Virus record (IMG/VR): IMGVR_UViG_3300021400_000020
Location: 1-64,000 of that record
Direction: 5' to 3' (one strand)
Source of the DNA: a virus
DNA length: 64,000 nt
Shown: positions 699 through 60,864 of the stretch, one piece after another
Layout: every line of letters begins with the position of its first letter
How positions within the stretch are numbered: the stretch's first letter is position 1
Made by a program: the position numbers and the translations under genes
Notes under the pieces: generated by a model
Told to the model about the DNA's origin: nothing
The model's database searches: none
The model's input: only the letters and a program-made list of their open reading frames with translations

Positions 699-1484
699 AT
701 GATTATCTCTATCCTTAATTACAAAGGTGGAGTGGCTAAAACCACCACCACCCTGAACCTCGGAACAGCACTATGGCTGCTCGACAAGTCGGTACTTCTC
801 ATCGACACGGACTCACAGTGTAACCTCACCAAAGCACTCGGATTCGACCCGAAGACTGACGGCAACGAAACCATCTACGAAATGCTAACAGGCAAATGCC
901 ACTCCTTTCCTATATATGAAAGAGGAAAAGGACTGGACTATATGCCAGGCTCACCCGCACTGGAAAGCATCGCCAAGGAACTGCCAGAGTATAAGAAACT
1001 AACCGTACTCCGACACTACCTCTCTCAAATCGCAACACAATACGACTACATCCTGATTGACTGCCCACCATCAGCATCACTACTCAACTACAACGCAATG
1101 ATAGCGTCCGAGTCTATCATCATCCCTCTCGAATGCGCCGCATTCTCAGTACAAGGCTCACTCAAGCTGATACCAGACATCGAAGGCATCAAGGCTGAAC
1201 TGAACCCGAAACTCACCATCCTCGGCTACCTCTTCACCAAATTCGACAAGAGAACCAACATCGCCCGACAAGTGAAGGAACTCTTCGAACAAAACAAGAA
1301 CGTACCTACTTTCAAGACAACCATCAGAAGATGCGTGGCTTTCGATTCCACACCTATCGAACACCAGTCTATCTTCGAATTCGATGCAGAGTCCAACGGA
1401 GCAAAAGACTACCTCGCACTCGCAGAAGAAATCACCAAAACAAAAAGGAAGAAAAACTGGAAACGAAAAATCAATCCATCCTAA
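699..1484 (+). CDS. parA: ParA/Soj-type partition ATPase
   Basis: 261 aa. N-terminal deviant Walker A (MIISILNYKGGVAKTTTTLNLG), LIDTDSQ and ILIDCPP motifs. Confidence 0.9.
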   Translation: MIISILNYKGGVAKTTTTLNLGTALWLLDKSVLLIDTDSQCNLTKALGFDPKTDGNETIYEMLTGKCHSFPIYERGKGLDYMPGSPALESIAKELPEYKKLTVLRHYLSQIATQYDYILIDCPPSASLLNYNAMIASESIIIPLECAAFSVQGSLKLIPDIEGIKAELNPKLTILGYLFTKFDKRTNIARQVKELFEQNKNVPTFKTTIRRCVAFDSTPIEHQSIFEFDAESNGAKDYLALAEEITKTKRKKNWKRKINPS

Positions 1485-1487
1485 CAG

Positions 1488-1553
1488 CCACCGTTCCCGA
1501 AAGTTCTGTTTTCGGGTTCCCCTCGCCACCGTTCCCGAAAGTTCTGCTTTCGG
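1488..1553 (+). repeat. Hairpin-A elements x2 (CCACCGTTCCCGAAAG-TTCTG-YTTTCGG)
   Basis: Copies at 1488-1516 and 1526-1553, directly after the parA stop. Each has a 7-8 bp inverted repeat and a 5-nt loop. Confidence 0.9.
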
Positions 1554-1560
1554 CTTTCAG

Positions 1561-1590
1561 TTTCTCAGTATGCAGCGGTTTTGCCGCTGC
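1561..1590 (+). repeat. TTTCTCAGTA box + hairpin B (GCAGCGG-TTTTG-CCGCTGC)
   Basis: Box at 1561-1570 and hairpin at 1572-1590. The same box+hairpin recurs at 50357-50386 and 50417-50446. Confidence 0.85.
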
Positions 1591-1627
1591 CGTATTCTTC
1601 CATTCTGCTTTCGGTCCCCCACCCCAC

Positions 1628-2017: not shown

Positions 2018-2026
2018 CCCACCACC

Positions 2027-2055
2027 CCACCGTTCCACGAAATTCTGTTTCGTGG
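2027..2055 (+). repeat. Hairpin-A variant (CCACGAAA-TTCTG-TTTCGTGG)
   Basis: Keeps the CCACCGTT prefix and the loop. Both stem arms are changed in a compensatory way. Confidence 0.85.
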
Positions 2056-2194
2056 CAACCAATGACCAACGAACCACTTTTTTTCACTTTTTCTTTTTTA
2101 TTTCTTTTTAAGAAGGGTATATATCTATAATATCAGTTTGAGAAAATTGAAATAAAATTGTGAAATTGTCAACCTACAAAACAACTGATATTCA

Positions 2195-3930: not shown

Positions 3931-3943
3931 GCCACCACTCCTG

Positions 3944-3971
3944 CCACCGTCCCCGAAAGTTTCGCTTTCGG
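3944..3971 (+). repeat. Hairpin-A element
   Basis: ccaccgtccccgaaagtttcgctttcgg, 14 nt after the Rep stop. A TTTCTCAGCA box follows. Confidence 0.9.
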
Positions 3972-4010
3972 TCTTCGTTTCTCAGCAAGTCGCGCTTCTG
4001 GCATGGCAAT

Positions 4011-4052
4011 AAAAAAAGAGGAAAGGGAAGCACTAAGCCACCCCTTTCCTCT
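4011..4052 (-). terminator. Intrinsic terminator (minus-strand sense)
   Basis: 11-bp stem AGAGGAAAGGG/CCCTTTCCTCT (4017-4027 / 4042-4052). The A7 run on the + strand is a U-run for minus-strand transcripts. Lies between convergent Rep and terL. Confidence 0.7.
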
Positions 4053-4300
4053 TTGCTATATATATCAACGATTCTCGCGAATGGTCAATACGTCGTCCTT
4101 TTAGAATGAAACCTAAACCTTGTATAATATTTATGATCAGTTTTAATTCTCGAAAACAAAGGACAGGTGAGCGTTCTACAGCAACTCCCCCCCCCTATCC
4201 TAATCTTTGGAAGTCTTGTCTAAAACAACGCAAAGATACGAATAAATTTTAAAATTCAAAAATTTTTAAATGCAAAAATGATTTGATAGTCATAAATAAA

Positions 4301-6127
4301 TCAACCCATTACAGGTCGGCTCACACGCATCTTACCACCAAAGGAAGCTGCACTGAATCCCCTACCACCAAAACCATAGAACCGACAGCCGATAATCAGG
4401 GTATCAGCGGCATCGGAAATATCAGTGCGCTCTTCAAGCGGTCCTGCCGTCGGAGAACTGGACCTGTACTTCTCCCTACCCTTGTCCTTCTTCACGTAGG
4501 TATGCCCATTCTTGTCAACGGCTGTAGCCACCTTCGCGTTCTCCATCGCTACTATCAAGTATTCGTTATTCTCAACATTGATTCTGAAGAATAACTGCTG
4601 CTGACCGCTCATGACATCATTCAGAAACTGATACTTCTGGTCGTGACGCATAGGTGTCTTCATATCCACCATAATGACATGCCAACCTCGCGCCGTCAAC
4701 TCTTCATTCACGACATTATAAAACTTGTACTTTTCCTGCTCCTCCAAGGCATAAGTACCACCCTGCTTCGCCGTTGCATCATAATAATATATAACATCAT
4801 TGCAAGTTGCCTTGTGAGGCTCATAGTAACGACACCACTTCCTACAAAGCTCACGCAGCTTTTGCTCATTCTTTACATACATGGAACTCAACACCACAAC
4901 ACTCTCCACACCATCCATCTTGTACTGCTGACCTGTCACCACAGTATTGATGTTCTTGTTGTAGTCGAAAGCAATCCGCAATGGCAAGCCAGGCACTACG
5001 TCCGTATCAAGCACACAGTTGTAAGTGGCACGCTGCAAGGCATCAAGGTCTGGTGCCTTATACGAGTCGCCGTTCATCATCTTGTGCTTCGCCATGAACT
5101 TCTTCTGGATCACTTCGGTCTGGTCGTCCTCACGTGGCGCATACCCATGAACATGGACATCGAAACTCGAATAATATCCGTCCTTCGCCGCAGCCGTGCG
5201 CTTACCCAAAATCTGCCTGTCAAATACCAACTTCGGCAACTGACGCTCCATCCTCGCTATATAATCCTCACCAAGTATTTCAATATTTTCCAAGGAACTA
5301 AAATTGAAAAATGCCAGACTCTGACAACGCAACTCCTGCAATCGACTGCTCCACTCAGGAAACTCATGACTATTCGACAAGTCAATGCCATACTCCTCCA
5401 TGTAATGCTGCTGCTCTGCAAGCATCTCGACAATCTGCTGATTCACTTCTTCGGTCTGGTCATCCTCCGCACTCTCCCACTCCTGCTGAGCCAACGTCAA
5501 ACCACTATCACTACACCAAGTCTGACTCAAATAACGAGGGTTCTTCTTCGACCAACCAGGATGGTCATAGACATCGCCACGCAAGGCGGGAATTACCTCT
5601 TGCAAGACTTTCTGCCAATTAAAGAAACGAACCTCGTCCCCCATAATCCAACATAGGTTGTAACTGTTGGCAGACGCTCGCTGCTCCATCGAAACCATAA
5701 TCATCACAGCACCATTGTAGAAATGCAAAGCGTTCTCCCAGACACGAGGCTTCACCAAGGGCTCAACATAACCCGAACGCTTCGGAGCATGACCACGGAA
5801 ATACTGCACACCCTCCTTCCATCCTAACATCGTCTCTAACGACTTAACCATATTCGGCATCGTCTTACAGTACAGCTGCTTCAAACTATTACCTAAGAAC
5901 GCACCTAAACCTCTCGGTATCGTCTGCACATTCGCCGTCAGAAATGGGGCTTCTATACTTGTCTTGCCGAATCCTCGACCTGCACGGATATAGGTCTCCC
6001 TCGCACCAAAATTATATATCAACTGCTGAGCACGACTTAGGTACATCTCACGATACTTCGGTGTGAGCTTCTTTCCCTCAGCCAAATCCAAAGGCAATAC
6101 ACTGTCTAATAGCCCTGTGTGCATCAT
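4301..6127 (-). CDS. terL: Terminase large subunit
   Basis: 608 aa. Walker A-like RAGRGFGKTS, Walker B-like IMGDEVRF, and the size and layout typical of TerL. Confidence 0.7.
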   Translation of the reverse strand: MMHTGLLDSVLPLDLAEGKKLTPKYREMYLSRAQQLIYNFGARETYIRAGRGFGKTSIEAPFLTANVQTIPRGLGAFLGNSLKQLYCKTMPNMVKSLETMLGWKEGVQYFRGHAPKRSGYVEPLVKPRVWENALHFYNGAVMIMVSMEQRASANSYNLCWIMGDEVRFFNWQKVLQEVIPALRGDVYDHPGWSKKNPRYLSQTWCSDSGLTLAQQEWESAEDDQTEEVNQQIVEMLAEQQHYMEEYGIDLSNSHEFPEWSSRLQELRCQSLAFFNFSSLENIEILGEDYIARMERQLPKLVFDRQILGKRTAAAKDGYYSSFDVHVHGYAPREDDQTEVIQKKFMAKHKMMNGDSYKAPDLDALQRATYNCVLDTDVVPGLPLRIAFDYNKNINTVVTGQQYKMDGVESVVVLSSMYVKNEQKLRELCRKWCRYYEPHKATCNDVIYYYDATAKQGGTYALEEQEKYKFYNVVNEELTARGWHVIMVDMKTPMRHDQKYQFLNDVMSGQQQLFFRINVENNEYLIVAMENAKVATAVDKNGHTYVKKDKGREKYRSSSPTAGPLEERTDISDAADTLIIGCRFYGFGGRGFSAASFGGKMRVSRPVMG

Positions 6128-6240
6128 ACTAAAATTTTATTATTTTTGCATGATAAAATTACATAATTCTAAAATCTAAATATTTCAAAACTTTTAAATT
6201 ACTGCATCATAGAATATTGAAATAATATAATACCAGAATT

Positions 6241-7104
6241 TTAAAAGTCCTCCTCTTCCAATTCCTCCACCTCTTTATATGCAGGAGTTTCGCCATTGCC
6301 ATCATCATCCACCTCGTCAGCTTCTCCGTATGCAGCGGTTCTGCCGTTGCCATCATCATCCACCTCGTCAGTTTCTCTGTATGCAGCGGTTCTGCCGCTG
6401 CCATCATCGTCCACCTCGTCAGCTTCTCCGTATGCAGCGGTTCTGCCGCTGCCATCATCGTCCACCTCGTCAGTTTTTCTGTATGCAGCGGTTCTGCCGC
6501 TGCCATCATCGTCCAGCGAACGACGCTCCAACTCTTCCATGCGTTGCTCCAGCATCTGCTGAATATGGTCCTTCGTACCACCATATCTGTTATACAAGGC
6601 TATCAACTCCTTACGGGTAATCGTCTTCTTGTCACTACTAATCGTCTCGACACGGGAGGTGAGGAATATAGGCAACTGAGCTGTATTGCTGGCTGCCTCT
6701 ACCGCACTGTCCTCCTTGTCCAAGTGGTCTATGTCCTTCAGCAACTCAGCTCCCTTGATTTTTGCCGTGTTGTCACCCACTGCATCACCATGACGAATGG
6801 AATCCATCGCCACCCTACGCACAATCACCTTCGACATCTCACGACTACTGTTCCTTTGACAAAGCGAAAGAATATGTAGGAAAATCTGCTTGTCTATCAC
6901 AATCTGCCAAGTTCGCCTTCCCTTCCGCTTCAACCACATGTCAACATCCATATAGGGATTGTCTTCGAATCTGTGATATAACTCTAAACATAACTTCACT
7001 CGCTCACGCTGCTTGTCACCTAAGCGCAGCTCCTCCAACGGAATTCCCAGCTCAATATGACGTGTCACCTGCTGCATGGTGTGCTGACTCGGTTCTGTAC
7101 CCAT
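6241..7104 (-). CDS. Hypothetical protein upstream of terL (small-terminase candidate by position) with acidic repeat tail
   Basis: 287 aa. The C-terminus is five 17-aa repeats (DDDGSGRTAAYxxxDEV). Confidence 0.6.
   Translation of the reverse strand: MGTEPSQHTMQQVTRHIELGIPLEELRLGDKQRERVKLCLELYHRFEDNPYMDVDMWLKRKGRRTWQIVIDKQIFLHILSLCQRNSSREMSKVIVRRVAMDSIRHGDAVGDNTAKIKGAELLKDIDHLDKEDSAVEAASNTAQLPIFLTSRVETISSDKKTITRKELIALYNRYGGTKDHIQQMLEQRMEELERRSLDDDGSGRTAAYRKTDEVDDDGSGRTAAYGEADEVDDDGSGRTAAYRETDEVDDDGNGRTAAYGEADEVDDDGNGETPAYKEVEELEEEDF
6259..6513 (-). repeat. 51-bp tandem repeat x5 inside the CDS; each unit contains hairpin B
   Basis: Each unit carries gcagcggttctgccg(c/t)tgc, the same stem as intergenic hairpin B, with loop TTCTG. 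Confidence 0.85.
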
Positions 7105-7172
7105 AATTTTATAATTTTGTTATGATAAAATTTCAAAATATTAAAATCTCAGAATTTCAAAATGTAATAATA

Positions 7173-7237
7173 CCACCGTTCCCGAAAGTTCCGCTTTCGG
7201 TTCTTTCTTTCCCTGTTCCCGAAAGTTTCGCTTTCGG
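7173..7237 (+). repeat. Hairpin-A elements x2
   Basis: Copies at 7173-7200 and 7212-7237, between two minus-strand genes but in + orientation. Confidence 0.9.
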
Positions 7238-7243
7238 CTCTCA

Positions 7244-7519
7244 TCACTTAATAATACACAGCAAGCCAGGCTCGCCATAACTTGTCAAGTGAAGAGTAAA
7301 ACCTAAACCCGCCAGCATCGCAAGATAATCATCCAAAGGGTCGTTCTCACTATCCTTTCGAGGATAAGCACCAAGCGCATTACGAAGCATACCACGGGTG
7401 AAGACCATATCGGCTATGCCCTCAATATCAACAGGAGCATACGACCGCACAAAATCCTCAATCACCGATGGATAGGTGACAGTCTGAATAGAACTATTTT
7501 CTTCCTCCTTCTCTTTCAT
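7244..7519 (-). CDS. Hypothetical protein
   Basis: 91 aa. Its start overlaps the stop of the upstream gene by 1 nt. Confidence 0.6.
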   Translation of the reverse strand: MKEKEEENSSIQTVTYPSVIEDFVRSYAPVDIEGIADMVFTRGMLRNALGAYPRKDSENDPLDDYLAMLAGLGFTLHLTSYGEPGLLCIIK

Positions 7520-11987: not shown

Positions 11988-13526
11988 ATGGCACATGATT
12001 CTAACATAACGGCTCCACAGTCGGGTATGACATTCAATGTCACACCAAAGGAATCCCGTATGCCACTCGTTTCCGTCGAACTGGAGAAAAGAGTCATTGG
12101 AGAACTGATGAATTCCAATAAGGAAAATTTCTTCAAGATAAAGGAATTCCTCTCTGAAGACTGCTTCTACATGTCGATGAACAGGACAATCTACAAAGCT
12201 ATAAAGGCAGTCTGCGAAAACGGAGATAACCCCGACATGCCCATCGTCTGCAACGAAATCGTCAGACAAAACCCAAACCTGACACTCCCGCAAGTCATGC
12301 CAGAAGTCGCCAGCATCGTAGCCTATTCGGTGTTCACGGGACAACTCGCAAGAAATGCCATCATACTACAAGACTTCGCACGACGAAGACTGCTGAAAAT
12401 GACATTCGACACCTTCAGCGCAAAGGTGAACCAACTCGATACAAGCGTAGAGGAAATCGTGGAGAACCTGCATGACAAACTGAAAACCATCATGCAGGAC
12501 TCAGGTGTCAACGCAAAGACACTCACAAACGCACTCGAAGAACTCTACGAACGCGTCAAGACAAACCTCTCCACGGGAGGACAACATGGAAGCTACACTG
12601 GCTTCGAATTCATCGACGACAGAGGGGGATTCCAACCGTCAGACCTAATCGTACTCGGAGGAAGAACATCACAGGGAAAGACATCGTTCCTGCTCTCCAT
12701 CATCTCACACCTCATACGAGAGGGAGAAAAGACAGCACTCTTCTCACTCGAAATGACAAACGAACAACTCGCGGCTCGACTGGTATCAGGAGAGACCTTC
12801 GACATGAAAGCACACCCAACCGCCGCGGAACTCACAGAACAACCAATCATCCTTACATCAAACACCCTCCTGAACGTCAAACTTACCGATGCACAGTACA
12901 AGGTATTCGACCGAGCCATCGGAAATATCATGGTGTTCGGTGATTGCCTCTACTTCGACGACCGCTCACGACTCTCTATCGAAGTCATCATCTCCTCCAT
13001 CCGCACACTGCACTCAAAATATGGCATCAAGGGAGCTGCCATCGACTACCTCCAATCACTCTCATCGGCTGCTGATACGAGGGGAACGACACTCGAACTG
13101 CTCTACGGAGACTGGTGCAGACAACTGAAAAACCTCGCAAAGGAACTGAATATATGGATTATCATCGTGTCACAGCTGAGAAGAGACAACGACCCAGAAC
13201 CAACCAAGGAACAACTCAGAGGATCCGGACAGATCGAAGAGAATGCCGACCAGATATACCTTATCTACCGACCTGAATTCTACGGCAAGGAATACACAAT
13301 GGAAGGATTCGAGGACATCTCCACCAAAGGAACAGCACTCGTTAAACTCGATAAGGGACGAAACATAAAAACGGGAGCATTCATCTGCGGATGGGATGCA
13401 GCAACAACGAAATACTATAACATCCCTTACGACAGACTGCCACACAAGACAGACATCGTAAAGACAAACCAAACGACAGTCCAAACCGCCCACTCCGAAG
13501 AAGGACATAAGGACTACCCGTTTTAA
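11988..13526 (+). CDS. dnaB: Replicative DNA helicase DnaB
   Basis: 512 aa. N-terminal LEKRVIGELM, Walker A GGRTSQGKTS, IIVSQLRR and GSGQIEENAD motifs. Confidence 0.9.
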   Translation: MAHDSNITAPQSGMTFNVTPKESRMPLVSVELEKRVIGELMNSNKENFFKIKEFLSEDCFYMSMNRTIYKAIKAVCENGDNPDMPIVCNEIVRQNPNLTLPQVMPEVASIVAYSVFTGQLARNAIILQDFARRRLLKMTFDTFSAKVNQLDTSVEEIVENLHDKLKTIMQDSGVNAKTLTNALEELYERVKTNLSTGGQHGSYTGFEFIDDRGGFQPSDLIVLGGRTSQGKTSFLLSIISHLIREGEKTALFSLEMTNEQLAARLVSGETFDMKAHPTAAELTEQPIILTSNTLLNVKLTDAQYKVFDRAIGNIMVFGDCLYFDDRSRLSIEVIISSIRTLHSKYGIKGAAIDYLQSLSSAADTRGTTLELLYGDWCRQLKNLAKELNIWIIIVSQLRRDNDPEPTKEQLRGSGQIEENADQIYLIYRPEFYGKEYTMEGFEDISTKGTALVKLDKGRNIKTGAFICGWDAATTKYYNIPYDRLPHKTDIVKTNQTTVQTAHSEEGHKDYPF

Positions 13527-13569: not shown

Positions 13570-13953
13570 ATGGAAAGAAAAAACGACAGACAAACGTGTG
13601 CAATCACCATCTACAAGCCTACAGGAAATGCAGAGAACCTGACAAGCGAACAGGACAAGCAAGGCATCCTTCAACACTTCAACGAAAAATTCGCACAACT
13701 CACTGAGAAACAGAAAAAAGAATTACTGCTGAACATCACAAGGGCTATCTCCACATCCACACTCCCCATCCGACTGCTCGAACGATTCTCAACAGACTTT
13801 GGAAATAAGCCGTGGAACTACATAGCCATCGATACAAACCAGAACATCATCGGCATCGTATATGACGGACCTGAGCCATTCGCCACCGACGGAGTACCAA
13901 AGAAATACATCTACGAATTCATAGAACCTCTACCACTCCCAGTTTCTCAGTAA
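13570..13953 (+). CDS. Hypothetical protein
   Basis: 127 aa. Its last codons form a TTTCTCAGTA box. Confidence 0.65.
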   Translation: MERKNDRQTCAITIYKPTGNAENLTSEQDKQGILQHFNEKFAQLTEKQKKELLLNITRAISTSTLPIRLLERFSTDFGNKPWNYIAIDTNQNIIGIVYDGPEPFATDGVPKKYIYEFIEPLPLPVSQ

Positions 13954-13960
13954 CCAAAAG

Positions 13961-14139
13961 CCACCGTTCCCGAAAGTTCTGCTTTCGGGTTCCCCTCGCC
14001 ACCGTTCCCGAAAGTTCCGCTTTCGGGTTCCCCTCGCCACCATTCCCGAAAGTTCCGCTTTCGGGTTCCCCTCGCCACCATTCCCGAAAGTTCCGCTTTC
14101 GGTCATTAGTTTCTCAGTAACCGAAAGTTTCGCTTTCGG
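13961..14139 (+). repeat. Tandem hairpin-A array (38-bp unit x4 plus a boxed terminal copy)
   Basis: Units start at 13961, 13999, 14037 and 14075 (ccaccgttcccgaaagttccgctttcgggttcccctcg). A TTTCTCAGTA box and a fifth hairpin follow at 14121-14139. Confidence 0.95.
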
Positions 14140-14150
14140 TCATCAAAAAA

Positions 14151-14179
14151 TCCCATTAACCCCATCAACCCCATCACCC
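14151..14179 (+). repeat. (AACCCCATY)-type tract running into the start codon
   Basis: tcccattaaccccatcaaccccatcaccc followed directly by ATG at 14180. Confidence 0.85.
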
Positions 14180-15595
14180 ATGCTCGGAGAATTCCTGTCA
14201 TCTATCATCGAAAGACCCATCTGGAGAGAACGACCCGCCACACCAGGACAAGCCCTCATAGAACTGGTCATACTCGCACTCCACAAAAATGAATACGCTC
14301 AGCGACGAGGAATAGACATCCCCATCGCATACGGAGAGGTGTGCCTGTCACGCGAGGAAATGGCTTACCGATGGAAGTGGTCACGTAACAAGGTTGACTA
14401 CTTCTTGGTACGACTGAAAAGGTACGGCTGGATACATATTCGCAAAACACCGATAATCAATGTATTGACATTCTTTTTCTCTCCTTTTTTTAAACTCTAT
14501 GGTACGGCTGAAAGTACGGCTCATGGTACGGCTCATGGAACGACTGAAAGTACGACAGAAAGTACGGCTCATGGAACGACTGAAGACTTTTTTCAGGAAG
14601 CCCGAATTATCAGCGACGAGAAGGTTGGGAAATACGATAGCAAACGTATTCCAATACAAACGTCCGATACACCGCTATCATCTGCAAATCAAGACTTTGC
14701 ATGGGCAATGAAACTGACTAACGAAGCTCTCGGCATACAAGAGGGGTGGGGTGGGGAGGTAGCAGCTATCAACAGCCTGCAAGACTATATGAATATATAT
14801 ATGAATGGGATGAATGGTACGGCTCAAAATGAGAAAAATGGTACGGCTCAAAGCAGTTTTCAAAAACGAAAGAAACAAAGACAAAACGAAAGAAAAGAAC
14901 CAAAAGAAAGAAAAAAAGAAACAAAGAAAGAAAAAATAACAAACACAATTTCTTTAGGATGGATAAACCATAAACCTAAAGAAAATTGTGTCTTTCTTAA
15001 CGAAAGCGCCGCTGGTGCGGCGACAGAGAGAGACGATGATTTTCTTGGGGAAAACCACGAGAGGGGGATGGAGAAGGACAGCACTCAGCCAATGGAGAAA
15101 GATAGTCTGCAGACGAATGAGAGAACACAGATAGAAAACCAACAAAATCCAAAAGCCGCCGCCGCTGCCGACGACCCCGCTGCCGCGAAAATCGACAAGA
15201 AAGCCTGGAAACAGGAACTCACCAGAACCGTACTCGAAGAAATCAGAAGATTCACCAACGACTTCATCGACAACATCGAACCCAAGGAGGACATCACACG
15301 ACGATGCTCCACCGTATGCTGGCACAAAGTGCCTGTCCACCACCTCGGCGAAACGGAAAACGCATACTTGTATATCCTCTACCTGCGCTACCTCGTCTTG
15401 AAATGCCCGAACATCTGCGCGTCTATGAAGAAACTGCCAACTCAACAGCAATACCTACAACTCGTTGAACTTTTCGGACACAAACTCGTCAACAAGAAAA
15501 CGGATCTGCTCGAAGGCTATTGCGACCGATACCATTACAAGACACTCTACCAACCATTGCTCGATTGGTGCCAACGGGAAAAACAGAAGAAATGA
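14180..15595 (+). CDS. Hypothetical protein; possible wHTH N-terminus with low-complexity middle
   Basis: 471 aa. N-terminus has ...REEMAYRWKWSRNKVDYFLVRLKRYGWIHI. Middle contains GTAESTAHGTAHGTTESTTESTAHGTTE repeats and a KE-rich stretch. Confidence 0.6.
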   Translation: MLGEFLSSIIERPIWRERPATPGQALIELVILALHKNEYAQRRGIDIPIAYGEVCLSREEMAYRWKWSRNKVDYFLVRLKRYGWIHIRKTPIINVLTFFFSPFFKLYGTAESTAHGTAHGTTESTTESTAHGTTEDFFQEARIISDEKVGKYDSKRIPIQTSDTPLSSANQDFAWAMKLTNEALGIQEGWGGEVAAINSLQDYMNIYMNGMNGTAQNEKNGTAQSSFQKRKKQRQNERKEPKERKKETKKEKITNTISLGWINHKPKENCVFLNESAAGAATERDDDFLGENHERGMEKDSTQPMEKDSLQTNERTQIENQQNPKAAAAADDPAAAKIDKKAWKQELTRTVLEEIRRFTNDFIDNIEPKEDITRRCSTVCWHKVPVHHLGETENAYLYILYLRYLVLKCPNICASMKKLPTQQQYLQLVELFGHKLVNKKTDLLEGYCDRYHYKTLYQPLLDWCQREKQKK

Positions 15596-18256: not shown

Positions 18257-18261
18257 CTCCC

Positions 18262-18331
18262 ACCACCCTCCCATCCTCCCCATCAATCCCATCAATCCCA
18301 TCAACCCCACCAACCCCATTAACCCCATCCC
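18262..18331 (+). repeat. Longest CCCAT-type tract, running into ATG 18332
   Basis: ccatcaatcccatcaatcccatcaaccccaccaaccccattaaccccatcccATG. Confidence 0.85.
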
Positions 18332-18685
18332 ATGATAAAGGAAAGCATGTTTTTCACCGAGCCCACCATTAAGGATTATCGTGATATGGATGTTGTGAAG
18401 ATAATCCGCGAACACTTATACACGAAGGGCACTTGGAACCATCCCATCTTAAAGGATGAACAGCCGAAACCTATTAACAAGACCGTACATCCGAAAGACC
18501 TTGTATCTGACGGACTGTTTGTATATGGACTTAAATGCAACGCAACCAACAAACGAGCTGTGGAATACTACTGTGAACGCTGGGCTCGCATCCACCAAAT
18601 ACTCGACCATCAAGGCTGCATAAAAATCCCCGAAGACCTTTGGCTGGAGTGTGACGAATATAATCACAAAATGACAGGAAGGTAA
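18332..18685 (+). CDS. Hypothetical protein
   Basis: 117 aa. Confidence 0.6.
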   Translation: MIKESMFFTEPTIKDYRDMDVVKIIREHLYTKGTWNHPILKDEQPKPINKTVHPKDLVSDGLFVYGLKCNATNKRAVEYYCERWARIHQILDHQGCIKIPEDLWLECDEYNHKMTGR

Positions 18686-18884
18686 AGAAGATAATTATGG
18701 CTTACGGAATCTGATGTTGTGAGCATGTTGAAAAACAGTCATTCATAAAACAATTCTTACTTAATATTGCAGAGTTGATGTAAAAGAATCACTGCATTCA
18801 CCCTCTTTTTGTGGTGACGATGCAGAAAAATATACGGCAAAAATTGCACATATTAACTATAAATGTGTAACAAATTCGCTTAAA

Positions 18885-18920
18885 ATTGCACACTACAACA
18901 ATAGTGTGCAATTTTTGTTT
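18885..18920 (+). terminator. Intrinsic terminator
   Basis: ATTGCACACT/AGTGTGCAAT 10-bp stem followed by TTTTTGTTTT. Confidence 0.7.
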
Positions 18921-19188
18921 TATTGAATTTTGAGTCATAATTTTTTTCGACCTGTAAAAATTTGCGCCATTCCGAATTTTTTTTTGATTTTTTTTGTTTT
19001 TTTTTCACGCGCACCCCACGCGCCCCGCAAAGGAACACGGGCGTTCCTCGCCTGGTTCGGAACGTTCGCAAATATGCCTGAATGATTCCACCAAAACGAG
19101 CAGCACACACCCAGACGATCGCCATAAAAGAGGTACGCGTAGAAATGGCATCCAAGACAGCGAAAAAGCATCTTTTCAGATTCGAGAG

Positions 19189-19237
19189 AAAAACACCCGA
19201 TTTTGTAAAGTCGAGTTTGCAAAATTGGGTGTTTTTT
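19189..19237. terminator. Long hairpin, possibly a bidirectional terminator
   Basis: AAAAACACCC ... GGGTGTTTTT with an inner TTTTG/CAAAA stem. Confidence 0.5.
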
Positions 19238-19340
19238 CGCTTTGTTGATGCTAAGTGAAATTTTTTTCAATCTTTAGATTGAAGCGAAAATGCGCTTAAA
19301 ATTTTTGTAGTGAAAATTTGCATGAATGAAAAACACTTTA

Positions 19341-19348
19341 TAACTTTG
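19341..19348 (+). promoter_or_regulatory. -7 box TAACTTTG
   Basis: TAnnTTTG match upstream of the 19508 gene. The distance (about 160 nt) is long. Confidence 0.35.
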
Positions 19349-21472: not shown

Positions 21473-22924
21473 ATGAAAACTAACATGATTTACGCAACTT
21501 GGAATGTTGCACGTAACGAGAACAAAAACCAGAATCAGATTATCTTGGTTAATGATGGCACTAACTTCCATACCTTCGCAGAGGATGTGGATGCCGTTAT
21601 GTCGTGTGTATTTGGCACTGATTCCGAGAAGGTTGTTAATGAAAGCAAGTATCAAGATATGGCAACTTGTTCTTTCCCAAAGACACAGATTGACGTTATC
21701 ACTCTGCTGCTTCGCAACAACATGGCACCTATCATTCGCATGTTGCCAGAGGATGCAGAGGTTGCTTCTGAACCTACTGCCAAGGTAATAGCTATGCCTA
21801 CGAACAGCAAGCCAGAGGCAACCAAGGAAACCAAGCCAGAGGCAACCAAGGAAACCAAGCCAGAGGCAACCAAGGAAACCAAGCCAGAGCCTACCAAGAC
21901 AATCAAGTCAGAGCCTACCAAGACAACCAAGCCAGAGCCAGTTACATCTACTCCATCCATTGAGCCTATTGCAAACGAGCCAACACTTAGCAAAGCACAA
22001 CTCGCAACCCTTGAGAAGTATTGGATGAAAGGTTATGACCTTGCTAATGCATACGTGGCTTCATTGAGTTCGACTGAAATCAACGAGAAGTTGCTTGACC
22101 TGAAGAACAAACTTGATTCATCTTGGGCAAATGCTCAGAAAGTGAAGAAGAATCTTGCAAGTTTCTTTATCGCCATGATGGGGTATAGAACAGTGCAAGG
22201 TCAAATTGCTTGCATTGATAAATACCTGAAGGGTTGTGGTACTGAAGAACCTGCCGTGACCGATGAACCTACTACCACTGAAGAACCTACTACCACTGAA
22301 GAACCTACTACCACTGAAGAACCTACTACCACCGAAGAACCTACTGTGACCGAAACTCCTGCCGTGGCTGAAACTCCTGCCGTGGCTGAAACTCCTGCCG
22401 TGGCTGAAACTCCTGCCGTTGTTGTTAGTGTTGATGCAGACACTGACACGCCAACACCAACAATCTGGCTTGGGTACTCTCCTAAGAGCTTCGTATTCAC
22501 TGGTAGCATCAAGGATGATGCAGACATCCTTACAAACTTAGGCGGTCGTTGGAACAGCTTTGGGTTCAAGGAAATTGACGGCAAGCCACAAGGATGGACG
22601 TTTCAATCCGCTAAGCAAGACGTGCTTGTTGCTACTCTCAAACGTCTTTACCCTTCCGTTGTCTTGATGGACTGCCAGCGCAGTAGCGCAGTCGATGAAC
22701 CTCAGAAACCTCTCTGCCGACTTCAGATGATTGACTACTCTGATAGATGTGTTGCCTTGACAGGTGAGGGCATCGAGTTCTACGAGAAACAGATTATGAA
22801 TGAGCTTCACGGAGCACGTTGCAATCGTTTGGTGATTGGTACAGACAAACCTCGTCTTGGCTTCTTTATCAGCAAAAGACGTATGAGTGATGTAGAAAAG
22901 TTTGTGAACACTGTTAATGCGTAA
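21473..22924 (+). CDS. Hypothetical modular protein with PT/E-rich tandem linkers and two C-terminal repeat modules
   Basis: 483 aa. KPEATKET x3 plus variants (about 21809-21953). EEPTTT x4 and ETPAVA x4 (about 22244-22427). C-terminal modules at about 22463-22657 and 22721-22912. Confidence 0.75.
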   Translation: MKTNMIYATWNVARNENKNQNQIILVNDGTNFHTFAEDVDAVMSCVFGTDSEKVVNESKYQDMATCSFPKTQIDVITLLLRNNMAPIIRMLPEDAEVASEPTAKVIAMPTNSKPEATKETKPEATKETKPEATKETKPEPTKTIKSEPTKTTKPEPVTSTPSIEPIANEPTLSKAQLATLEKYWMKGYDLANAYVASLSSTEINEKLLDLKNKLDSSWANAQKVKKNLASFFIAMMGYRTVQGQIACIDKYLKGCGTEEPAVTDEPTTTEEPTTTEEPTTTEEPTTTEEPTVTETPAVAETPAVAETPAVAETPAVVVSVDADTDTPTPTIWLGYSPKSFVFTGSIKDDADILTNLGGRWNSFGFKEIDGKPQGWTFQSAKQDVLVATLKRLYPSVVLMDCQRSSAVDEPQKPLCRLQMIDYSDRCVALTGEGIEFYEKQIMNELHGARCNRLVIGTDKPRLGFFISKRRMSDVEKFVNTVNA

Positions 22925-35496: not shown

Positions 35497-35524
35497 ATAT
35501 TAACCCCATAAACCCCATTACCCC
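35497..35524 (+). repeat. CCCAT-type tract running into ATG 35525
   Basis: attaaccccataaaccccattaccccATG. Confidence 0.85.
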
Positions 35525-35944
35525 ATGAAAAAAATAATCACCCTGATAGCACTCTTGTGCATCACCATCACACTCTCCGCACAGAACAACAACCCTCGTC
35601 CAGACGACATCTATTCCCTTGCCAATGGTTATAACGAGAAAGTCCAAAAGGAAAAAATCAATCAGGAACGCATGGCGAAAGTAGAAGCCAACAAGAACGC
35701 CATCTTTGCAGCTGGCACAGCACTCAAGTCATCCGCCAACTGGCAATGGGTAGCTTTCGGCAGTGCAGCCGTCGGTGGAGCAACATTAGCCATCGGCTTC
35801 GACCAGAAAGAGGATGCACTGAAAATCGTCGGTTACACCTGCATGGGCTTCGCACTCGTCTCGCAAGTCGTTTCCATCACCAAGAAATACAAGGCAGGAA
35901 AACAACTCCAAATCGGTGCAGGAAAAATTACCTACACCTTCTAA
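35525..35944 (+). CDS. Secreted/membrane hypothetical protein
   Basis: 139 aa. Signal-like MKKIITLIALLCITITLSAQ and two hydrophobic segments near the C-terminus. Confidence 0.7.
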   Translation: MKKIITLIALLCITITLSAQNNNPRPDDIYSLANGYNEKVQKEKINQERMAKVEANKNAIFAAGTALKSSANWQWVAFGSAAVGGATLAIGFDQKEDALKIVGYTCMGFALVSQVVSITKKYKAGKQLQIGAGKITYTF

Positions 35945-36162: not shown

Positions 36163-36444
36163 TTTCGAAAATTATGTTCTACAACATATTTCCCAAAATA
36201 ATTAGAAAATAATTTGGCAGTTCAAACCGAAAACCATACATTTGCACTGTCAAAACCAGAATTGCGGTACGAAATGGATGCCGCCCAACAGCGGCTATTT
36301 TTGTATCTGCCAACATTGTAATAAACCTATTATATCCTATAGGCAATAATGAGTCGGGTAGTGGTGACACCCCGAAAGTTTCCGCAGTTTTGGACTTTGA
36401 CAACTCTTATTGCCTATTTTTTATTTTGTCAAAACCAAAACTTT

Positions 36445-36891
36445 ATGAGTAAAAGAATCAAAGCCCTTACAAATCAGCAGCGTGACTATGCCAAGATGCT
36501 GAAGGAGTATTTCAGCTTCCATCTTCGAGGCATGGAAGTGAAGGAAGAAGGCGGCCAGGTACAGGCGCAAGTCATCTACAGCGATTACAAGCACATCGAC
36601 ACCGTTCGACACGAACTCGCACAGATGATGCCAGAAGTGGAATTCACAAAGCTTCGACGCGACTTTTCCGATTCGGCAAAGATGTGGGCGTTGCGAAGCA
36701 TCTTATGGGAAGACTGCCCTGTGCCTGTCATCTACGTGCAGCGTGGAGAAACGCTCGTCCAAACCACACTCCGAGACATCGCCATCAGCGAACTCCGACA
36801 ACTGGAACTCGAAGACGGCGACATCCAGTATCAGGATTACGAGACAAAGCATCTCGACAACGAACGACTCGAAGAAAACTCTTGGAATTAA
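36445..36891 (+). CDS. Hypothetical protein (start moved to ATG 36445)
   Basis: 148 aa beginning MSKRIKALTNQQ. Confidence 0.6.
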   Translation: MSKRIKALTNQQRDYAKMLKEYFSFHLRGMEVKEEGGQVQAQVIYSDYKHIDTVRHELAQMMPEVEFTKLRRDFSDSAKMWALRSILWEDCPVPVIYVQRGETLVQTTLRDIAISELRQLELEDGDIQYQDYETKHLDNERLEENSWN

Positions 36892-36956
36892 CCACCGTGC
36901 CCGAAAGTTCTGCTTTCGGGATTCCCATTCATCAACCCCATCAACCCCATTTTCCC
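36892..36956 (+). repeat. Hairpin A + CCCAT tract module
   Basis: Hairpin at 36892-36920. It is followed by attcccattcatcaaccccatcaaccccattttccc, which abuts ATG 36957. Confidence 0.9.
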
Positions 36957-37121: not shown

Positions 37122-37125
37122 TCCA

Positions 37126-37224
37126 CCACCGTTCCCGAAAGTTCTGCTTTCGGGTATTGTCCTTCTCAGTACCCGAAAGTTCCGCTTTCGGTTCCCCATC
37201 AACCCCATTAACCCCATCAACCCC
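37126..37224 (+). repeat. Full module: hairpin A, box + hairpin A, (AACCCCATY)x3-4
   Basis: Hairpins at 37126-37154 and 37172-37191. At 37194-37224 there are four C4 runs separated by 5 nt, and the last unit forms CCCCATG. Confidence 0.95.
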
Positions 37225-37521: not shown

Positions 37522-37554
37522 TTCCGTTGTTTCCCTGCAATCCTTTTTCTCTCG

Positions 37555-37619
37555 CCACCGTCCCCGAAAGTTTCGCTTTCGGTCTTTGATTTCTCAGTAC
37601 CCGAAAGTTTTGCTTTCGG
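37555..37619 (+). repeat. Hairpin A x2 at the convergent junction with the tape measure gene
   Basis: Copies at 37555-37582 and 37600-37619 (boxed). Confidence 0.9.
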
Positions 37620-37679
37620 CACAAAAGCGAGGAAGTGACAACAACCGTTGCCACTTCCCTGCTTTTTCGTGTTTGTCAA

Positions 37680-45570: not shown

Positions 45571-45630
45571 GTGATAGACAACCAAAATCATAAGGACAAA
45601 TTTCTTAGTCATCCCTGTCTTTCTCCGTAT

Positions 45631-46012
45631 GCGAAAGTTCCGCTTTCGCCTTTCATCCTCCCCCGAAAGTTCTGCTTTCGGTCCTTAGTTTCTCCGTATC
45701 TGAAAGCTCTGCTTTCAGCCATCAAAGAAACAAGGTTTCCACGCTCTCGTGAAAACCTTGAACTTTTGAGTCTCAATTCACGCAAAAAAATTGAAACTCC
45801 ATCTTTAAATCATGGCAAAGATACGACTTTCATCGTTCCCCTCAAAATCTTTCCGTCAATTTCTGCACCACCGTCCACGAAAGTTCCTGCCACCGTTCCC
45901 GAAAGTTCCTGCCACCGTTCCCGAAAGTTCCGCTTTCGGGTAAAAAGAAAGTTCCGCTTTCGGTTTAGCTTTCAGCCCTTGCTTTCTCCGTACCCGAAAG
46001 TTCCGCTTTCGG
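45631..46012 (+). repeat. Dense pile-up of hairpin-A elements and fragments
   Basis: Copies at 45631-45649 (GCGAAAG variant), 45660-45681, 45700-45718 (CTGAAAG variant), 45912-45940, 45946-45963 (degenerate) and 45993-46012. Half-units of 22 bp at 45868-45889 and 45890-45911. Confidence 0.9.
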
Positions 46013-46014
46013 CT

Positions 46015-48463: not shown

Positions 48464-50227
48464 TTTGCTCTCCGTTGATACAACCCCCGTCTTGCTGTTG
48501 TCCAGCGTCGTGAGGTTCTGCTGTTCTATCACCCATTTCAAGTGCTTGTCACAGTCATTGAAGGTGGAAATCATGTCCAAGAGCCATAGGTAACGACGCT
48601 GACTTGGACTCACCTGCTGCTCCTTCAGCAAATGCAACTCACGCTGGAACGTGCCTCCCTTACCAGAACTACCAGGACGTGAGCCGATCAGTTCGGGATG
48701 AACACCCATTGCAAAGAAGATGATACTGCTCACTTCCTCCAACTCGGCTTTTAAGTCCTTGGCGTTCTGAGGTTGTGGCACATCTACAATCTCAATCGAC
48801 TTCACGAGCGTCTTCTCATCTTGGCTCAGATAGGCATCCAATGCAACGGTCTTACCGTTATTGTCGCGCTTCTTCAGGAATTGGTTGATGTCGTTAATCA
48901 GACCCGTCTTGATAGCATCCTGCTCGTCCTCGTTCGTCGCTCCCATCTGGTCGTAGAGTTTCTGAAGGTAGTTGAGATTGATGTAGATGATTTTTCCCCA
49001 CATCGTAGAGTTGTTCCTCGCCGCTGCCTTGTCGAACATCATTGTATAGGCATAGTTATACACATAGCTCAGGAAGATACTCCACCACATAGGCTGTGGA
49101 TAGTAAGGGCGGAGTATGTTCGCACGTTTCAGAGGGATGCAGAACCATGCCGTGCGCTCATTCACCTTCTGACGTTGTTGACGCGATACCCACGAATTCA
49201 ATTCTTCAATGGCACTGTCGGAATTGATGACAGGGTAGGCGATGACCTCGCCAAATTGCAAGTCGGGAGTGCATTCCTTGCGCCAACGCTCGGCATAGAA
49301 GACATTCTCAATCTTCAAGTCCTTGCTCATCTCCTCGTAACGGGTGCAGACACAAGGCAGAAAACCGAGTTTCACAATCTTAGGATTCCACTTGCCGCTC
49401 TTACCTCGCGACAAGCCAATCGTAGGAAAGGCGATGTTCATGTGGGCATCGTCAGTACAATACTTCTCATAATGCTCACAGAGATTGTTGTTCTCAAGGA
49501 ACTCACGAAGCCATTGACTTGTGCTTTCCCATTTTTCATAGTCTTTGACAAGCTGATCGATTTCCTTGTCAAGGTACTCTTTGAGACGAGTATGCTTGCC
49601 ACCCTTACGCGGACCTTCCTCGCCACCGTTCCCGAAAATTTGGTTTTCGGGTAAAAGGTTACCGTTCCCGAAGGTTCTGCCTTCGGATTCCCCGTTCACC
49701 CCATCATCCTGCGACTCATCATCATCCAAGGCATCTCGTCGTGAAGATAACTCTATAAGTCTATTCAGAATCAGCGTACCAGCAAGAGGGTAGGGGATGC
49801 TCTCTTCCTTGACCGTCCCTCCAGCGTATCGTGCCCATACGTAAGTGGGTTTGGGACCATGCCCTTGCGTGAGGTTGATGATGTATTCCATAGCAGCAGC
49901 AGTGTAGGGGAGGGCTGCCACTAACTGCGCAATCCTGTTCGGCTGGTCGTTGGCACTGCCCCAGGCGATATACTTGCCTTTGACGGTCTTGCTATCCACA
50001 CTGATTGCCTGTATTTGCTTACCGTCGGGAATGAGGTTGCTGCCCGTACCAAGCATCGACTTGTTCGCCCATTCCGCGCAGCCACTCACCACCGAAGGGT
50101 CGTTATTCTTGCTGTTGCCAAACCCTGTCACCGTGATGGGAATATAACCACGTTTCTGCAAGCTCTGAATCTTGCTGAAGGCTTTATCAACGGTTTTTTT
50201 AAACTGATTCTTCTGATTCTTTGCCAT
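48461..50227 (-). CDS. Portal-like protein (tentative) with embedded repeat module
   Basis: 588 aa, first gene of the minus-strand virion block, with a -7 box 25 nt upstream. The portal call rests on size and position only. Residues ...GRTFGNGNLLPENQIFGNGG... are encoded by two hairpin-A copies. Confidence 0.45.
   Translation of the reverse strand: MAKNQKNQFKKTVDKAFSKIQSLQKRGYIPITVTGFGNSKNNDPSVVSGCAEWANKSMLGTGSNLIPDGKQIQAISVDSKTVKGKYIAWGSANDQPNRIAQLVAALPYTAAAMEYIINLTQGHGPKPTYVWARYAGGTVKEESIPYPLAGTLILNRLIELSSRRDALDDDESQDDGVNGESEGRTFGNGNLLPENQIFGNGGEEGPRKGGKHTRLKEYLDKEIDQLVKDYEKWESTSQWLREFLENNNLCEHYEKYCTDDAHMNIAFPTIGLSRGKSGKWNPKIVKLGFLPCVCTRYEEMSKDLKIENVFYAERWRKECTPDLQFGEVIAYPVINSDSAIEELNSWVSRQQRQKVNERTAWFCIPLKRANILRPYYPQPMWWSIFLSYVYNYAYTMMFDKAAARNNSTMWGKIIYINLNYLQKLYDQMGATNEDEQDAIKTGLINDINQFLKKRDNNGKTVALDAYLSQDEKTLVKSIEIVDVPQPQNAKDLKAELEEVSSIIFFAMGVHPELIGSRPGSSGKGGTFQRELHLLKEQQVSPSQRRYLWLLDMISTFNDCDKHLKWVIEQQNLTTLDNSKTGVVSTESK
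49623..49686 (+). repeat. Two hairpin-A variants inside the portal-like CDS
   Basis: 49623-49651 (CCCGAAAA-tttgg-TTTTCGGG) and 49660-49686 (CCGAAGG-ttctg-CCTTCGG). Followed by caccccatcatcc. Confidence 0.9.
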
Positions 50228-50259: not shown

Positions 50260-50309
50260 ATATCTCCCCACCAAAATCAAGCGGACATTTTTCTCCCCCG
50301 CCCCTCCTG

Positions 50310-50446
50310 CCACCGTCCCTGCCACCGTCCCCGAAAGTTCCGCTTTCGGTTTCCAGTTTCTCCGTATGCAGCGGTTTTGCCGCTGCCCCTTCCCCTGTTC
50401 CGCTTTCGGCTTTCAGTTTCTCCGTATGCAGCGGTTTTACCGCTGT
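50310..50446 (+). repeat. Hairpin A (one and a half copies) + two box/hairpin-B units
   Basis: Half-copy at 50310-50321, hairpin A at 50322-50349, hairpin B at 50368-50386, half-site at 50391-50409, and hairpin B' at 50428-50446. Confidence 0.9.
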
Positions 50447-55470: not shown

Positions 55471-55543
55471 CAAGCGAATTTTAAAGAGATAAAATTTTTT
55501 ACAAATCCATTTTCGCACCCTCTGCGAATCTACTTTCCAAAAA

Positions 55544-55611
55544 CCACCGTTCCCGAAAGTTCTGCTTTCGGGTTCAGAAAAAACCACCGTTCCCGAAAGT
55601 TCTGCTTTCGG
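55544..55611 (+). repeat. Hairpin A x2 in the dcm 5' leader
   Basis: Copies at 55544-55572 and 55584-55611 (40-bp spacing). Confidence 0.9.
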
Positions 55612-55632
55612 TCATCAGAAAGAAAGAAATCT

Positions 55633-57512: not shown

Positions 57513-57521
57513 CCCCTCCAG

Positions 57522-57661
57522 CCACCGTCCCCCGAAATTTTGTTTCGGGTTTCAAAAGCCACCGTTCTCAAAAGTTTCGCTTTCAGGTTCCCCTCTCCAC
57601 CGTCCCCGAAAGTTCTGCTTTCAGTCCTTCGTTTCTCCGTACCTCTCGGCTCAGCCGAGAG
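57522..57661 (+). repeat. Hairpin A x3 + box + hairpin C (CTCTCGG-CTCAG-CCGAGAG)
   Basis: Hairpin A at 57522-57549, 57559-57587 (degenerate) and 57597-57624. Hairpin C at 57643-57661. Confidence 0.9.
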
Positions 57662-57703
57662 CCCACTCATAAAAACCATTAACCCCATAAACCCCAAAAA
57701 CAA

Positions 57704-59362: not shown

Positions 59363-59365
59363 AAG

Positions 59366-59480
59366 CCACCGTTCCTGCCACCGTTCCCAAAAGTTTCGCT
59401 TTCGGGTTCCCCTCTCCACCGTCCCTGAAACTTCTGCTTTCAGTCCTTCGTTTCTCCGTACCTCTCGGCTCAGCCGAGAG
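59366..59480 (+). repeat. Hairpin A half-copy + 2 copies + box + hairpin C
   Basis: Half-copy at 59366-59377, hairpin A at 59378-59406 and 59416-59443, and hairpin C at 59462-59480. Confidence 0.9.
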
Positions 59481-59520
59481 CTTTCTCACCAAACCCATTA
59501 ACCCCATCAACCAAAAAACT

Positions 59521-60046: not shown

Positions 60047-60066
60047 ATCCCTTTTCTCCATCCCCA

Positions 60067-60094
60067 CCACCGTCCCCGAAAGTTCCGCTTTCGG
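60067..60094 (+). repeat. Hairpin A
   Basis: ccaccgtccccgaaagttccgctttcgg. Confidence 0.9.
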
Positions 60095-60113
60095 TCAAAA
60101 CAACCCATCAACA

Positions 60114-60755: not shown

Positions 60756-60759
60756 CCCA

Positions 60760-60824
60760 CCACCGTTCCTGAAAGTTCTGCTTTCAGTCTTTCGTTTCTC
60801 CGTACCTCTCGGCTCAGCCGAGAG
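60760..60824 (+). repeat. Hairpin A (CTGAAAG variant) + box + hairpin C
   Basis: Hairpin A at 60760-60787 and hairpin C at 60806-60824. Confidence 0.9.
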
Positions 60825-60851
60825 CCTTCTCACCAACCCCATTAACCCCAT

Positions 60852-60861: not shown

Positions 60862-60864
60862 ATC

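Follow-up and report, generated by a model that had tools for sequence, protein, structure and literature searches.

Short extragenic palindromes present in many copies are known from REP/BIME systems and their RAYT enzymes, in which an asymmetric foot is located 5' of a 7-10 bp hairpin, often featuring a pyrimidine-rich loop. REP arrays vary between strains, lie just 3' of stop codons, are occasionally inserted in-frame and form families with different stems within one genome; these features are shared by the box-and-hairpin modules described below. For REPs of the Bacteroidetes RAYT subclass 2.6, Table S1 of PMC6006769 lists a short non-GTAG foot, mostly an 8-10 bp hairpin and many TCT, TCCT or TTT loops, and the same source documents REP insertions preserving the reading frame. 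For IS200/IS605 elements, passages in PMC6006769 and PMC5027513 describe that the replication fork (lagging-strand template) dictates the orientation of insertion, resulting in a replichore-wide polarity. Elements of this group (IS608, ISDra2) as well as MITEs (PATEs) resemble the modules in carrying a hairpin and an adjacent short sequence on one strand. Rickettsia palindromic elements (RPEs) are palindromic repeats residing in-frame at tolerant protein positions, where they add a peptide segment; to our knowledge, no single-strand polarity has been reported for them. In mycobacteriophages, dozens of short intergenic motifs occur as Cluster A stoperators and Cluster K start-associated sequences.

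The modules of the rumen phage-plasmid studied here agree with REPs in being short palindromic units, in 35 copies per 64 kb, that are mainly extragenic and also found between host housekeeping genes. They differ in their foot, which is GCCACCGTYCC or TTTCTCMGTA instead of GT[AG]G, in forming direct arrays only, whereas classical REPs form inverted pairs (BIME/REPIN), and in their replicon-wide uniform polarity and their density in a phage-plasmid; no RAYT was found nearby. IS200/IS605 elements have a TnpA, use a tetra- or pentanucleotide target and carry distinct subterminal hairpins at their left and right ends. In comparison, the unit is only approximately 34 nt long with a single hairpin, has no distinct left and right ends and is not accompanied by a visible TnpA; moreover, with the modules on the C-rich strand, it is the complement that would be required as the active form. 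RPEs share the in-frame location within coding genes but measure 100-150 bp; the present modules are mostly intergenic. The mycobacteriophage motifs follow transcription and represent phage-specific protein or ribosome sites, in contrast to the present modules, which ignore transcription and are common to host chromosomes. In form, the atypical REPs beside Bacteroidetes RAYTs are the nearest documented relatives, and single-strand transposition coupled to the replication fork would represent the nearest mechanism. Integron attC sites were rejected as a candidate, since these are imperfect palindromes of 57-141 nt with R''/L''-L'/R' boxes and extrahelical bases that are accompanied by an IntI integrase, in contrast to short perfect hairpins with a one-sided box; no integrase was seen among the annotated genes. 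A nut-like antiterminator was set aside on the basis of copy number and polarity. No description of the sequence, of REPs from Prevotella or Bacteroides or of intergenic repeats in phage-plasmids was found in the literature.

Module architecture and orientation in the phage-plasmid

The window, i.e., the whole 64,000-nucleotide stretch of DNA analyzed, is located on a 97,040-bp ENA scaffold (exact-protein matches; scaffold_390 of assembly ERZ28612966), to which its two ends map with circular permutation and on which it is flanked by capsid-protease and lysin-type genes. Sequencing runs containing the replicon originate from sheep, cattle and goat gut metagenomes, and the replicon of approximately 97 kb is a ParA/Rep3-iteron phage-plasmid of rumen Bacteroidales. 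Portal homologues with 40-49% identity are encoded on contigs of 94-140 kb, and the loci fetched for three of these contigs also feature ParA and a Rep3/DnaA_N-type gene; therefore, these replicons form a family of Bacteroidales phage-plasmids. As in Bacteroidota, start contexts lack Shine-Dalgarno motifs, and TAnnTTTG-type promoters were recognized by eye; AT-rich regions of this type precede the structural (minus-strand) genes. The following genes and sites are referred to below:

699-1484: ParA
2208-2448: five to six iterons (GTAAACAAGATGGTAGA), kept in the relative L275
2443-3930: weakly Rep3_N-like initiator (Rep), with iterons upstream
4301-6127, minus strand: TerL-like gene
11988-13526: DnaB; a DnaD-like protein (loader) is encoded as well
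within 14.2-36.9 kb: PcfJ, ArdC and a 1602-aa N6-methylase/SNF2 helicase
37680-44957, minus strand: tape-measure gene (2425 aa)
48461-50227, minus strand: portal-like CDS
55633-57303, plus strand: C5-methylase gene

The module unit of approximately 34 nt consists of an asymmetric, one-sided box of 10-11 nt and a single perfect hairpin of 19-21 nt with a 7-8 bp stem and a pyrimidine-rich loop (TTYYG). Type A combines the box GCCACCGTYCC with the hairpin CCGAAAG-TTYYG-CTTTCGG and often forms direct tandem arrays of 38-nt repeats, whereas type B combines the further box of this lineage, TTTCTCMGTA, with hairpins of at least four unrelated stems. The module loci are:

1484..1591, plus strand: two type-A units (box GCCACCGTTCC and CCGAAAG/TTCTG hairpin), then the type-B box TTTCTCAGTA with a GCAGCGG hairpin; directly 3' of the ParA stop (1484) and 5' of the plus gene at 1685
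2023..2056, plus strand: single degenerate type-A unit (CCCACCGTTCC-ACGAAA-TTCTG-TTTCGT), located 3' of the stop codon of the plus gene 1685-2017 and upstream of the iterons
3940..3973, plus strand: type-A unit 3' of the Rep stop (3930), where Rep and the minus TerL-like gene converge; a degenerate B box and the separate bidirectional terminator-like hairpin 4010-4055 come next
6290..6515, plus strand: about 4.5 tandem 51-nt repeats of a B-like box (TTCTCYGTA) and GCAGCGG-TTCTG-CCGCTGC, in-frame in the minus CDS 6241-7104
7169..7239, plus strand: two units, of which the first has the box CCACCGTTCC and the second a degenerate one; between the minus genes 6241-7104 and 7244-7519
13957..14141, plus strand: spacer between the plus genes 13570-13953 and 14180-15595, filled by four tandem type-A units of 38 nt and one type-B unit; then (AACCCCATY)n and ATG
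36888..36921, plus strand: type-A unit, 1 nt 3' of the stop of the plus gene 36349-36891
37122..37193, plus strand: type-A and B-like unit (CCTTCTCAGTA and hairpin), then C-rich 9-mers and ATG
37551..37621, plus strand: type-A and type-B unit in front of the minus tape-measure gene (37680-44957), with which the junction is convergent
45620..45720, plus strand: three units (B box with GCGAAAG hairpin; CCGAAAG hairpin; B box with CTGAAAG hairpin) between the minus genes 45018-45545 and 46015-46560
45868..46014, plus strand: partial boxes in repeated copies (CCTGCCACCGTT), a complete type-A unit, a hairpin fragment and a type-B unit; the final hairpin ends 3 nt from the stop of the minus gene 46015-46560
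49619..49688, plus strand: two type-A units with the compensatory stem variants CCGAAAA/TTTTCGG and CCGAAGG/CCTTCGG, in-frame in the minus portal-like CDS 48461-50227
50295..50446, plus strand: duplicated boxes, one type-A and two type-B units (GCAGCGG hairpin) in a divergent region 5' of the plus gene 50551-53580
55540..55613, plus strand: two type-A units between the divergent minus gene 54663-55319 and the plus C5-methylase gene 55633-57303
57518..57662, plus strand: three type-A units, one type-B unit (CTCTCGG-CTCAG-CCGAGAG) and C-rich 9-mers, leading to the ATG at 57704
59363..59481, plus strand: duplicated box, two type-A units, one type-B unit and a C-rich leader before the ATG at 59521
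60063..60096, plus strand: single type-A unit between the plus genes 59798-60046 and 60114-60755
60756..60825, plus strand: type-A and type-B unit after the stop of the plus gene 60114-60755, then a C-rich leader and ATG at 60865

Seventeen of these are counted as loci (nine between plus genes, two convergent, two divergent, three between minus genes and one within a minus CDS); the in-CDS type-B array at 6290-6515 and one minus-context copy in the flanking contig L003 come in addition. At 7173-7237, the hairpins CCGAAAG-TTCCG-CTTTCGG, preceded by CCACCGTTC, and CCGAAAG-TTTCG-CTTTCGG were identified, the second ending 7 nt from the stop of the minus gene. The repeats at 6290-6515 encode a 17-aa repeat (DDDGSGRTAAYRETDEV) in the acidic tail of a 287-aa protein.

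In order to count orientations, a covariance model of the unit (R1; box GCCACCGTYCC and hairpin) was run without filters, and plus matches were accepted at E<=0.04, covering the 64 kb window and 18 kb of flanks (L003, L005) of the approximately 97 kb replicon. In the window, 35 plus copies and no independent minus copy were found; minus-strand matches correspond only to the palindromic stems of those 35 copies (at most 13.7 bits, model positions 13-33 only). The flanks added two plus copies and none on the minus strand, and in total, the replicon harbors approximately 40 copies of the box-plus-hairpin repeat. Among 64 perfect hairpins with a 6-bp stem and 5-nt loop, the TTYYG loop was present on the plus strand in 31 and the complementary form in none. 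Likewise, plus:minus counts in the window were 13:0 for the TTTCTCMGTA box, 17:1 for CCACCGTT (vs. 1.6 expected) and 7:1 for GTTCCCCTC. For all 17 loci to share one orientation, the two-sided p-value is approximately 1.5e-5.

The statement of the earlier note that all modules are co-oriented on the plus strand whatever the gene direction is thus borne out (35:0 by R1, 31:0 for TTYYG, 13:0 for the B box), and scanning the reverse complement with the motif model yielded no intact reverse copy in the 64 kb window or the 18 kb flanks. Its list of loci in minus operons needs revision. The loci 7173-7237 and 45631-46012 do lie between minus genes; 49623-49686 has a minus context but is located in-frame inside the portal-like CDS 48461-50227 and not in an intergenic position; and 50310-50446 is divergent, upstream of the plus gene 50551. 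The 51-nt in-frame repeats in CDS 6241-7104 (TTCTCYGTA box and GCAGCGG hairpin) represent a minus-context locus that had been missed. In total, six loci reside in minus-gene contexts, two of them in-frame in minus-strand coding sequences. All six are plus-oriented; therefore, the direction of transcription does not set the polarity.

These loci also bear on a function in RNA, in which the modules would punctuate plus-strand polycistronic transcripts, with A hairpins protecting or terminating the upstream 3' end, B units providing a processing site and a protected 5' end, CA-rich 9-mers serving as a Shine-Dalgarno-independent leader and the minus-context copies arising as by-products. Such a function is possible, although it is judged to be on the unlikely side. 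It would account for the ordered architecture of nine plus-strand junctions, where stop codon, A units, B unit, (AACCCCATY)n and ATG follow each other, for boxes starting 1-10 nt 3' of stop codons, and for the T-rich sequence after the last hairpin of some arrays, the only units flagged as terminator-like and on the plus strand only. However, all six minus-context loci run in the wrong sense, and two of these are part of coding sequences. Furthermore, most units do not combine a GC-rich hairpin with an immediate U-tract as intrinsic terminators do; the U-tract is missing, and GTTCCCCTC or another box comes next. Searches against Rfam 15 gave no match at gathering score across the window and none at E<=1 over 13800-14300, and RNA contigs, being unstranded and of very low depth, are uninformative on transcript ends.

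The C/A-rich 9-nt tandem repeats (AACCCCATY)n are located directly 5' of the ATG of many plus genes (1620-1661, 14141-14182, 18259-18333, 35499-35532, 36931-36964, 37193-37240, 57664-57711, 59483-59521 and 60827-60865), a position similar to that of the Cluster K start-associated sequences. AACCCCAT, taken from these repeats, was counted 18 times on the plus and once on the minus strand. The repeats also occur in L275, where they are longer, and may represent a Shine-Dalgarno-independent leader. Between the box and the 16S 3' region, a weak partial complementarity of 5 nt (GUUCC) was noticed by eye. At 3939, 45868-45920, 50295-50325 and 59363-59385, 12-nt direct repeats (CCTGCCACCGTY) beside full units represent duplications of the box without its hairpin, and one extra box copy is polymorphic in another sample; these duplications suggest slippage at the box.

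The plus strand is C-rich almost everywhere over the 82 kb read, including both minus-gene blocks and the iteron region. After splitting the skew into a coding-strand term and a fixed-strand (gene-independent) term, the latter amounted to -0.12 at all and -0.20 at third positions in the window, and to about -0.09 and -0.16 (third codon positions), respectively, at the other loci carrying modules. The module strand is the C-rich strand in 12 of 12 independent clusters, with related loci collapsed (p=0.0005). For the sense chromosomal loci, where gene and module orientation coincide, the skew is partly confounded by codon usage (C3>G3); the argument is carried by the antisense loci and the window itself. 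This pattern of one polarity on the C-rich strand corresponds to the orientation bias of IS200/IS605 elements, with the link to replication deduced from the skew, as is the replication direction of the replicon in general. Since the polarity tracks a gene-independent strand asymmetry, a cause at the DNA level is the better reading, in line with the preference expressed in the earlier note. Comparison of the GC skew with the iteron origin showed no change of sign across the iterons (2208-2448), and replication direction from that origin could consequently be related to the polarity only in that both keep one sign everywhere.

Between 14200 and 36880 (22.7 kb; PcfJ, ArdC, methylase-helicase), the covariance model revealed no hairpin modules, and the only stretch with neutral or positive GC skew (18.8-26.8 kb) lies within this region. 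It may represent a more recently acquired block of the conjugative-element type.

Strict single polarity, its agreement with strand asymmetry in all 12 clusters, the stability of the hairpins as single-stranded DNA (folding equal on both strands, z -4.6 to -6.8) and the presence of the replicon's own DnaB and DnaD-like loader would also suit a functional polar DNA signal of replication or the single-stranded state, such as priming or primosome-assembly sites (ssi- or sso-like) or a structured Chi/KOPS-like signal. This is regarded as quite unlikely. The 22.7 kb stretch between 14.2 and 36.9 kb is devoid of modules, other copies lie within coding sequences, and priming sites would hardly be expected in arrays of up to five adjacent copies. 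Moreover, the C-rich strand is, by the usual rule, the leading-strand template and not the exposed lagging-strand template. As a clue to the strand that folds, imperfect stems provide only a small number of G·T and A·C mismatches.

Distribution among phage-plasmid relatives and Bacteroidales genomes

L275 represents a syntenic relative of the window with a DnaB of 85% identity. Its 21.5 kb contain no more than approximately two weak copies, namely a degenerate A unit and a B unit, and the spacer orthologous to 7173-7237 is free of modules, as are three more distant family members (L276-L278). The relatives without modules keep the same operons and the same Rep, DnaB and loader; this is at odds with transcript punctuation as well as with ssi- or sso-type sites, for which conservation among close and distant relatives possessing the same replication genes would be expected. 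The in-frame copies behave similarly: those at 49619-49688 fall into a linker of the portal-like protein, which in 15 homologues is either hypervariable or lacking, and the 17-aa repeat of 6290-6515 is absent from the 232-aa homologue of L275. This is the behavior of an expanding repeat and not of a conserved replicon function. Near absence in relatives, in-frame copies, the chromosomal and ICE copies described below and a GC skew that keeps its sign at the iteron origin also speak against the ssi/priming or packaging-polarity role that had been suggested previously. In L277, an IS605-type TnpB gene (OrfB_IS605/Cas12f-like; 6133-7461) without TnpA is located beside the ParA/Rep module and is not linked to modules.

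An exact 25-mer of the unit matched 31 contigs, of which all but two belong to Bacteroidales by assignment, as well as over 113 contigs from gut metagenomes. Of the loci fetched with it by genome and metagenome scans, 104 represent one widespread conjugative element (ICE), in which the unit is located downstream of traG and antisense to the tra genes. Other 25-mer loci include spacers between ubiE-aroE-purM, nadC and ruvB-coaD in Prevotella and Bacteroidaceae assemblies (mostly metagenome bins). A 78-nt module query additionally matched one Phocaeicola plasmid and one unverified gut phage with 1-2 copies each, all on a C-rich stretch. Near-identity searches of 10-20 kb segments against phage and plasmid collections returned no match, and a 14-mer box scan of viral contigs gave mostly single chance matches. 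In the widespread ICE, which bears one module, traG (VirB4-like; L018, 6289-7973) apparently contains an interrupting ORF for a reverse transcriptase/maturase/HNH protein of a group II intron.

In the housekeeping spacers, the same box is combined with hairpins of different, compensating stems. Both stem sides had changed in four of eight pairs, and the observed covariation score was reached by none of 500 shuffles. This result decides on a further possibility, namely that the 7-N5-7 palindromes serve as duplex operators, i.e., as a dispersed global operator or centromere to which a ParB/KorB-like protein or a dimeric regulator binds, while the flanks hitch-hike. Perfect 19-bp palindromes in promoter-proximal or intergenic positions, including the site immediately downstream of parA, would fit such operators, and the dispersed palindromic operators of RK2 KorB and N15 provide a precedent. 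Nevertheless, compensatory stem changes next to a constant asymmetric box are characteristic of a folded strand rather than of a sequence-specific duplex site, chromosomes and ICEs contain the same element in unrelated contexts, and a symmetric operator leaves the polarity unexplained. The operator was rejected on stem covariation and is deemed highly improbable.

Outside the window, approximately half of the loci are sense to the flanking ORFs and the rest antisense. That ICE and other loci are antisense about as often as sense disagrees with a function in the transcript, whereas loci with housekeeping neighbors, which are always sense to the upstream gene and abut its stop codon, would fit an RNA-level constraint too. 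At every multi-cluster locus elsewhere, all copies agree in orientation. Array size at the same spacer differs between two Prevotella genomes (L022 vs. L036). Apparent module joints in DNA contigs of related strains were considered as recombination events and rejected, since contigs break or chimerize at repeats and the joints represent assembly artefacts; the 38-nt repeats break short-read assemblies at each copy. In-frame copies can also mislead gene annotation.

Origin of the single polarity

The modules share a single polarity independent of gene strand, reside on the C-rich strand, covary in their stems, fluctuate in copy number, occur in-frame in genes and are nearly absent from relatives. 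Based on these observations, a REP-like Bacteroidales repeat family that recently expanded in this phage-plasmid lineage by a DNA-strand-specific process is proposed, with a probability of roughly 0.5. On the best reading of the sequences, the native location of the family would be the genomes of Prevotella and Bacteroidaceae together with the conjugative elements of Bacteroidales. Among the alternatives named in the earlier note, strand-specific insertion is the one that fits best; priming, packaging and operator functions are weaker than this REP-like origin.

New copies would be generated by a process acting on one DNA strand, for instance by an IS200/IS605- or RAYT-type HUH enzyme on the single-stranded lagging-strand template or, alternatively, by strand-biased slippage beside an existing copy. 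It is proposed that one compositional polarity throughout the replicon (unidirectional or rolling-circle-like replication) would therefore place every copy on the same strand. Copies would be retained where the hairpin is harmless or useful, i.e., just 3' of stop codons or in disordered protein linkers and tails; after stop codons, the symmetric stem would provide an mRNA 3' hairpin in either orientation. An RNA role of the symmetric hairpin at cistron ends may thus be compatible with REP-like spread and explain retention, but it leaves the polarity unexplained. The mobilizing enzyme is hypothetical, because a crude HUH...Y motif scan of the window and of fetched loci totaling 2.6 Mb detected no Y1/HUH gene (RAYT or IS200-type). 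The direct organization of all arrays and a box of 11 nt instead of a tetranucleotide also argue against REP-like spread.

Alternatively, box and hairpin might constitute a previously undescribed Bacteroidales-wide polar element of chromosomes, ICEs and phage-plasmids, the orientation of which is set by, or reports, replication direction or single-strand exposure. Such an element, considered unlikely, could be a new type of single-hairpin mobile DNA with an unrecognized single-strand DNA enzyme producing direct instead of inverted arrays, or a structured strand-orienting signal of the host.

If the polarity results from strand-specific spread, the repeat family marks replication direction in replicons of uncultured Bacteroidales. 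It would further offer a tractable case of REP-like DNA passing from the host chromosome to a resident phage-plasmid and reshaping its intergenic regions and protein linkers, and would point to a single-strand DNA enzyme in Prevotella.

Other repetitive sequences of the window

Further repeats and hairpins were observed besides the modules. In several DNA and RNA runs unrelated to each other, contigs at 18677-19343 exceed the depth of their neighbors by a factor of hundreds to thousands. Long tracts of poly-T/A are present in this region, as are two long hairpins (18882-18915, 19189-19236), with neither a tRNA nor an Rfam match; the excess depth probably results from artefactual mapping to low-complexity sequence. 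Tandem repeats of 24, 18 and 12 nt are located in-frame at 21784-21940, 22241-22384 and 14499-14582, within the plus genes 21473-22924 and 14180-15595, where they encode proline/threonine/glutamate-rich or similar linkers. Finally, the Rep/TerL convergent junction features a long GC-rich hairpin (4010-4055) between an A-run and a T-run (AAAAAAAGAGGAAAGGG...CCCTTTCCTCTTT), which is kept in L275 and, unlike the modules, looks like a conventional bidirectional terminator.
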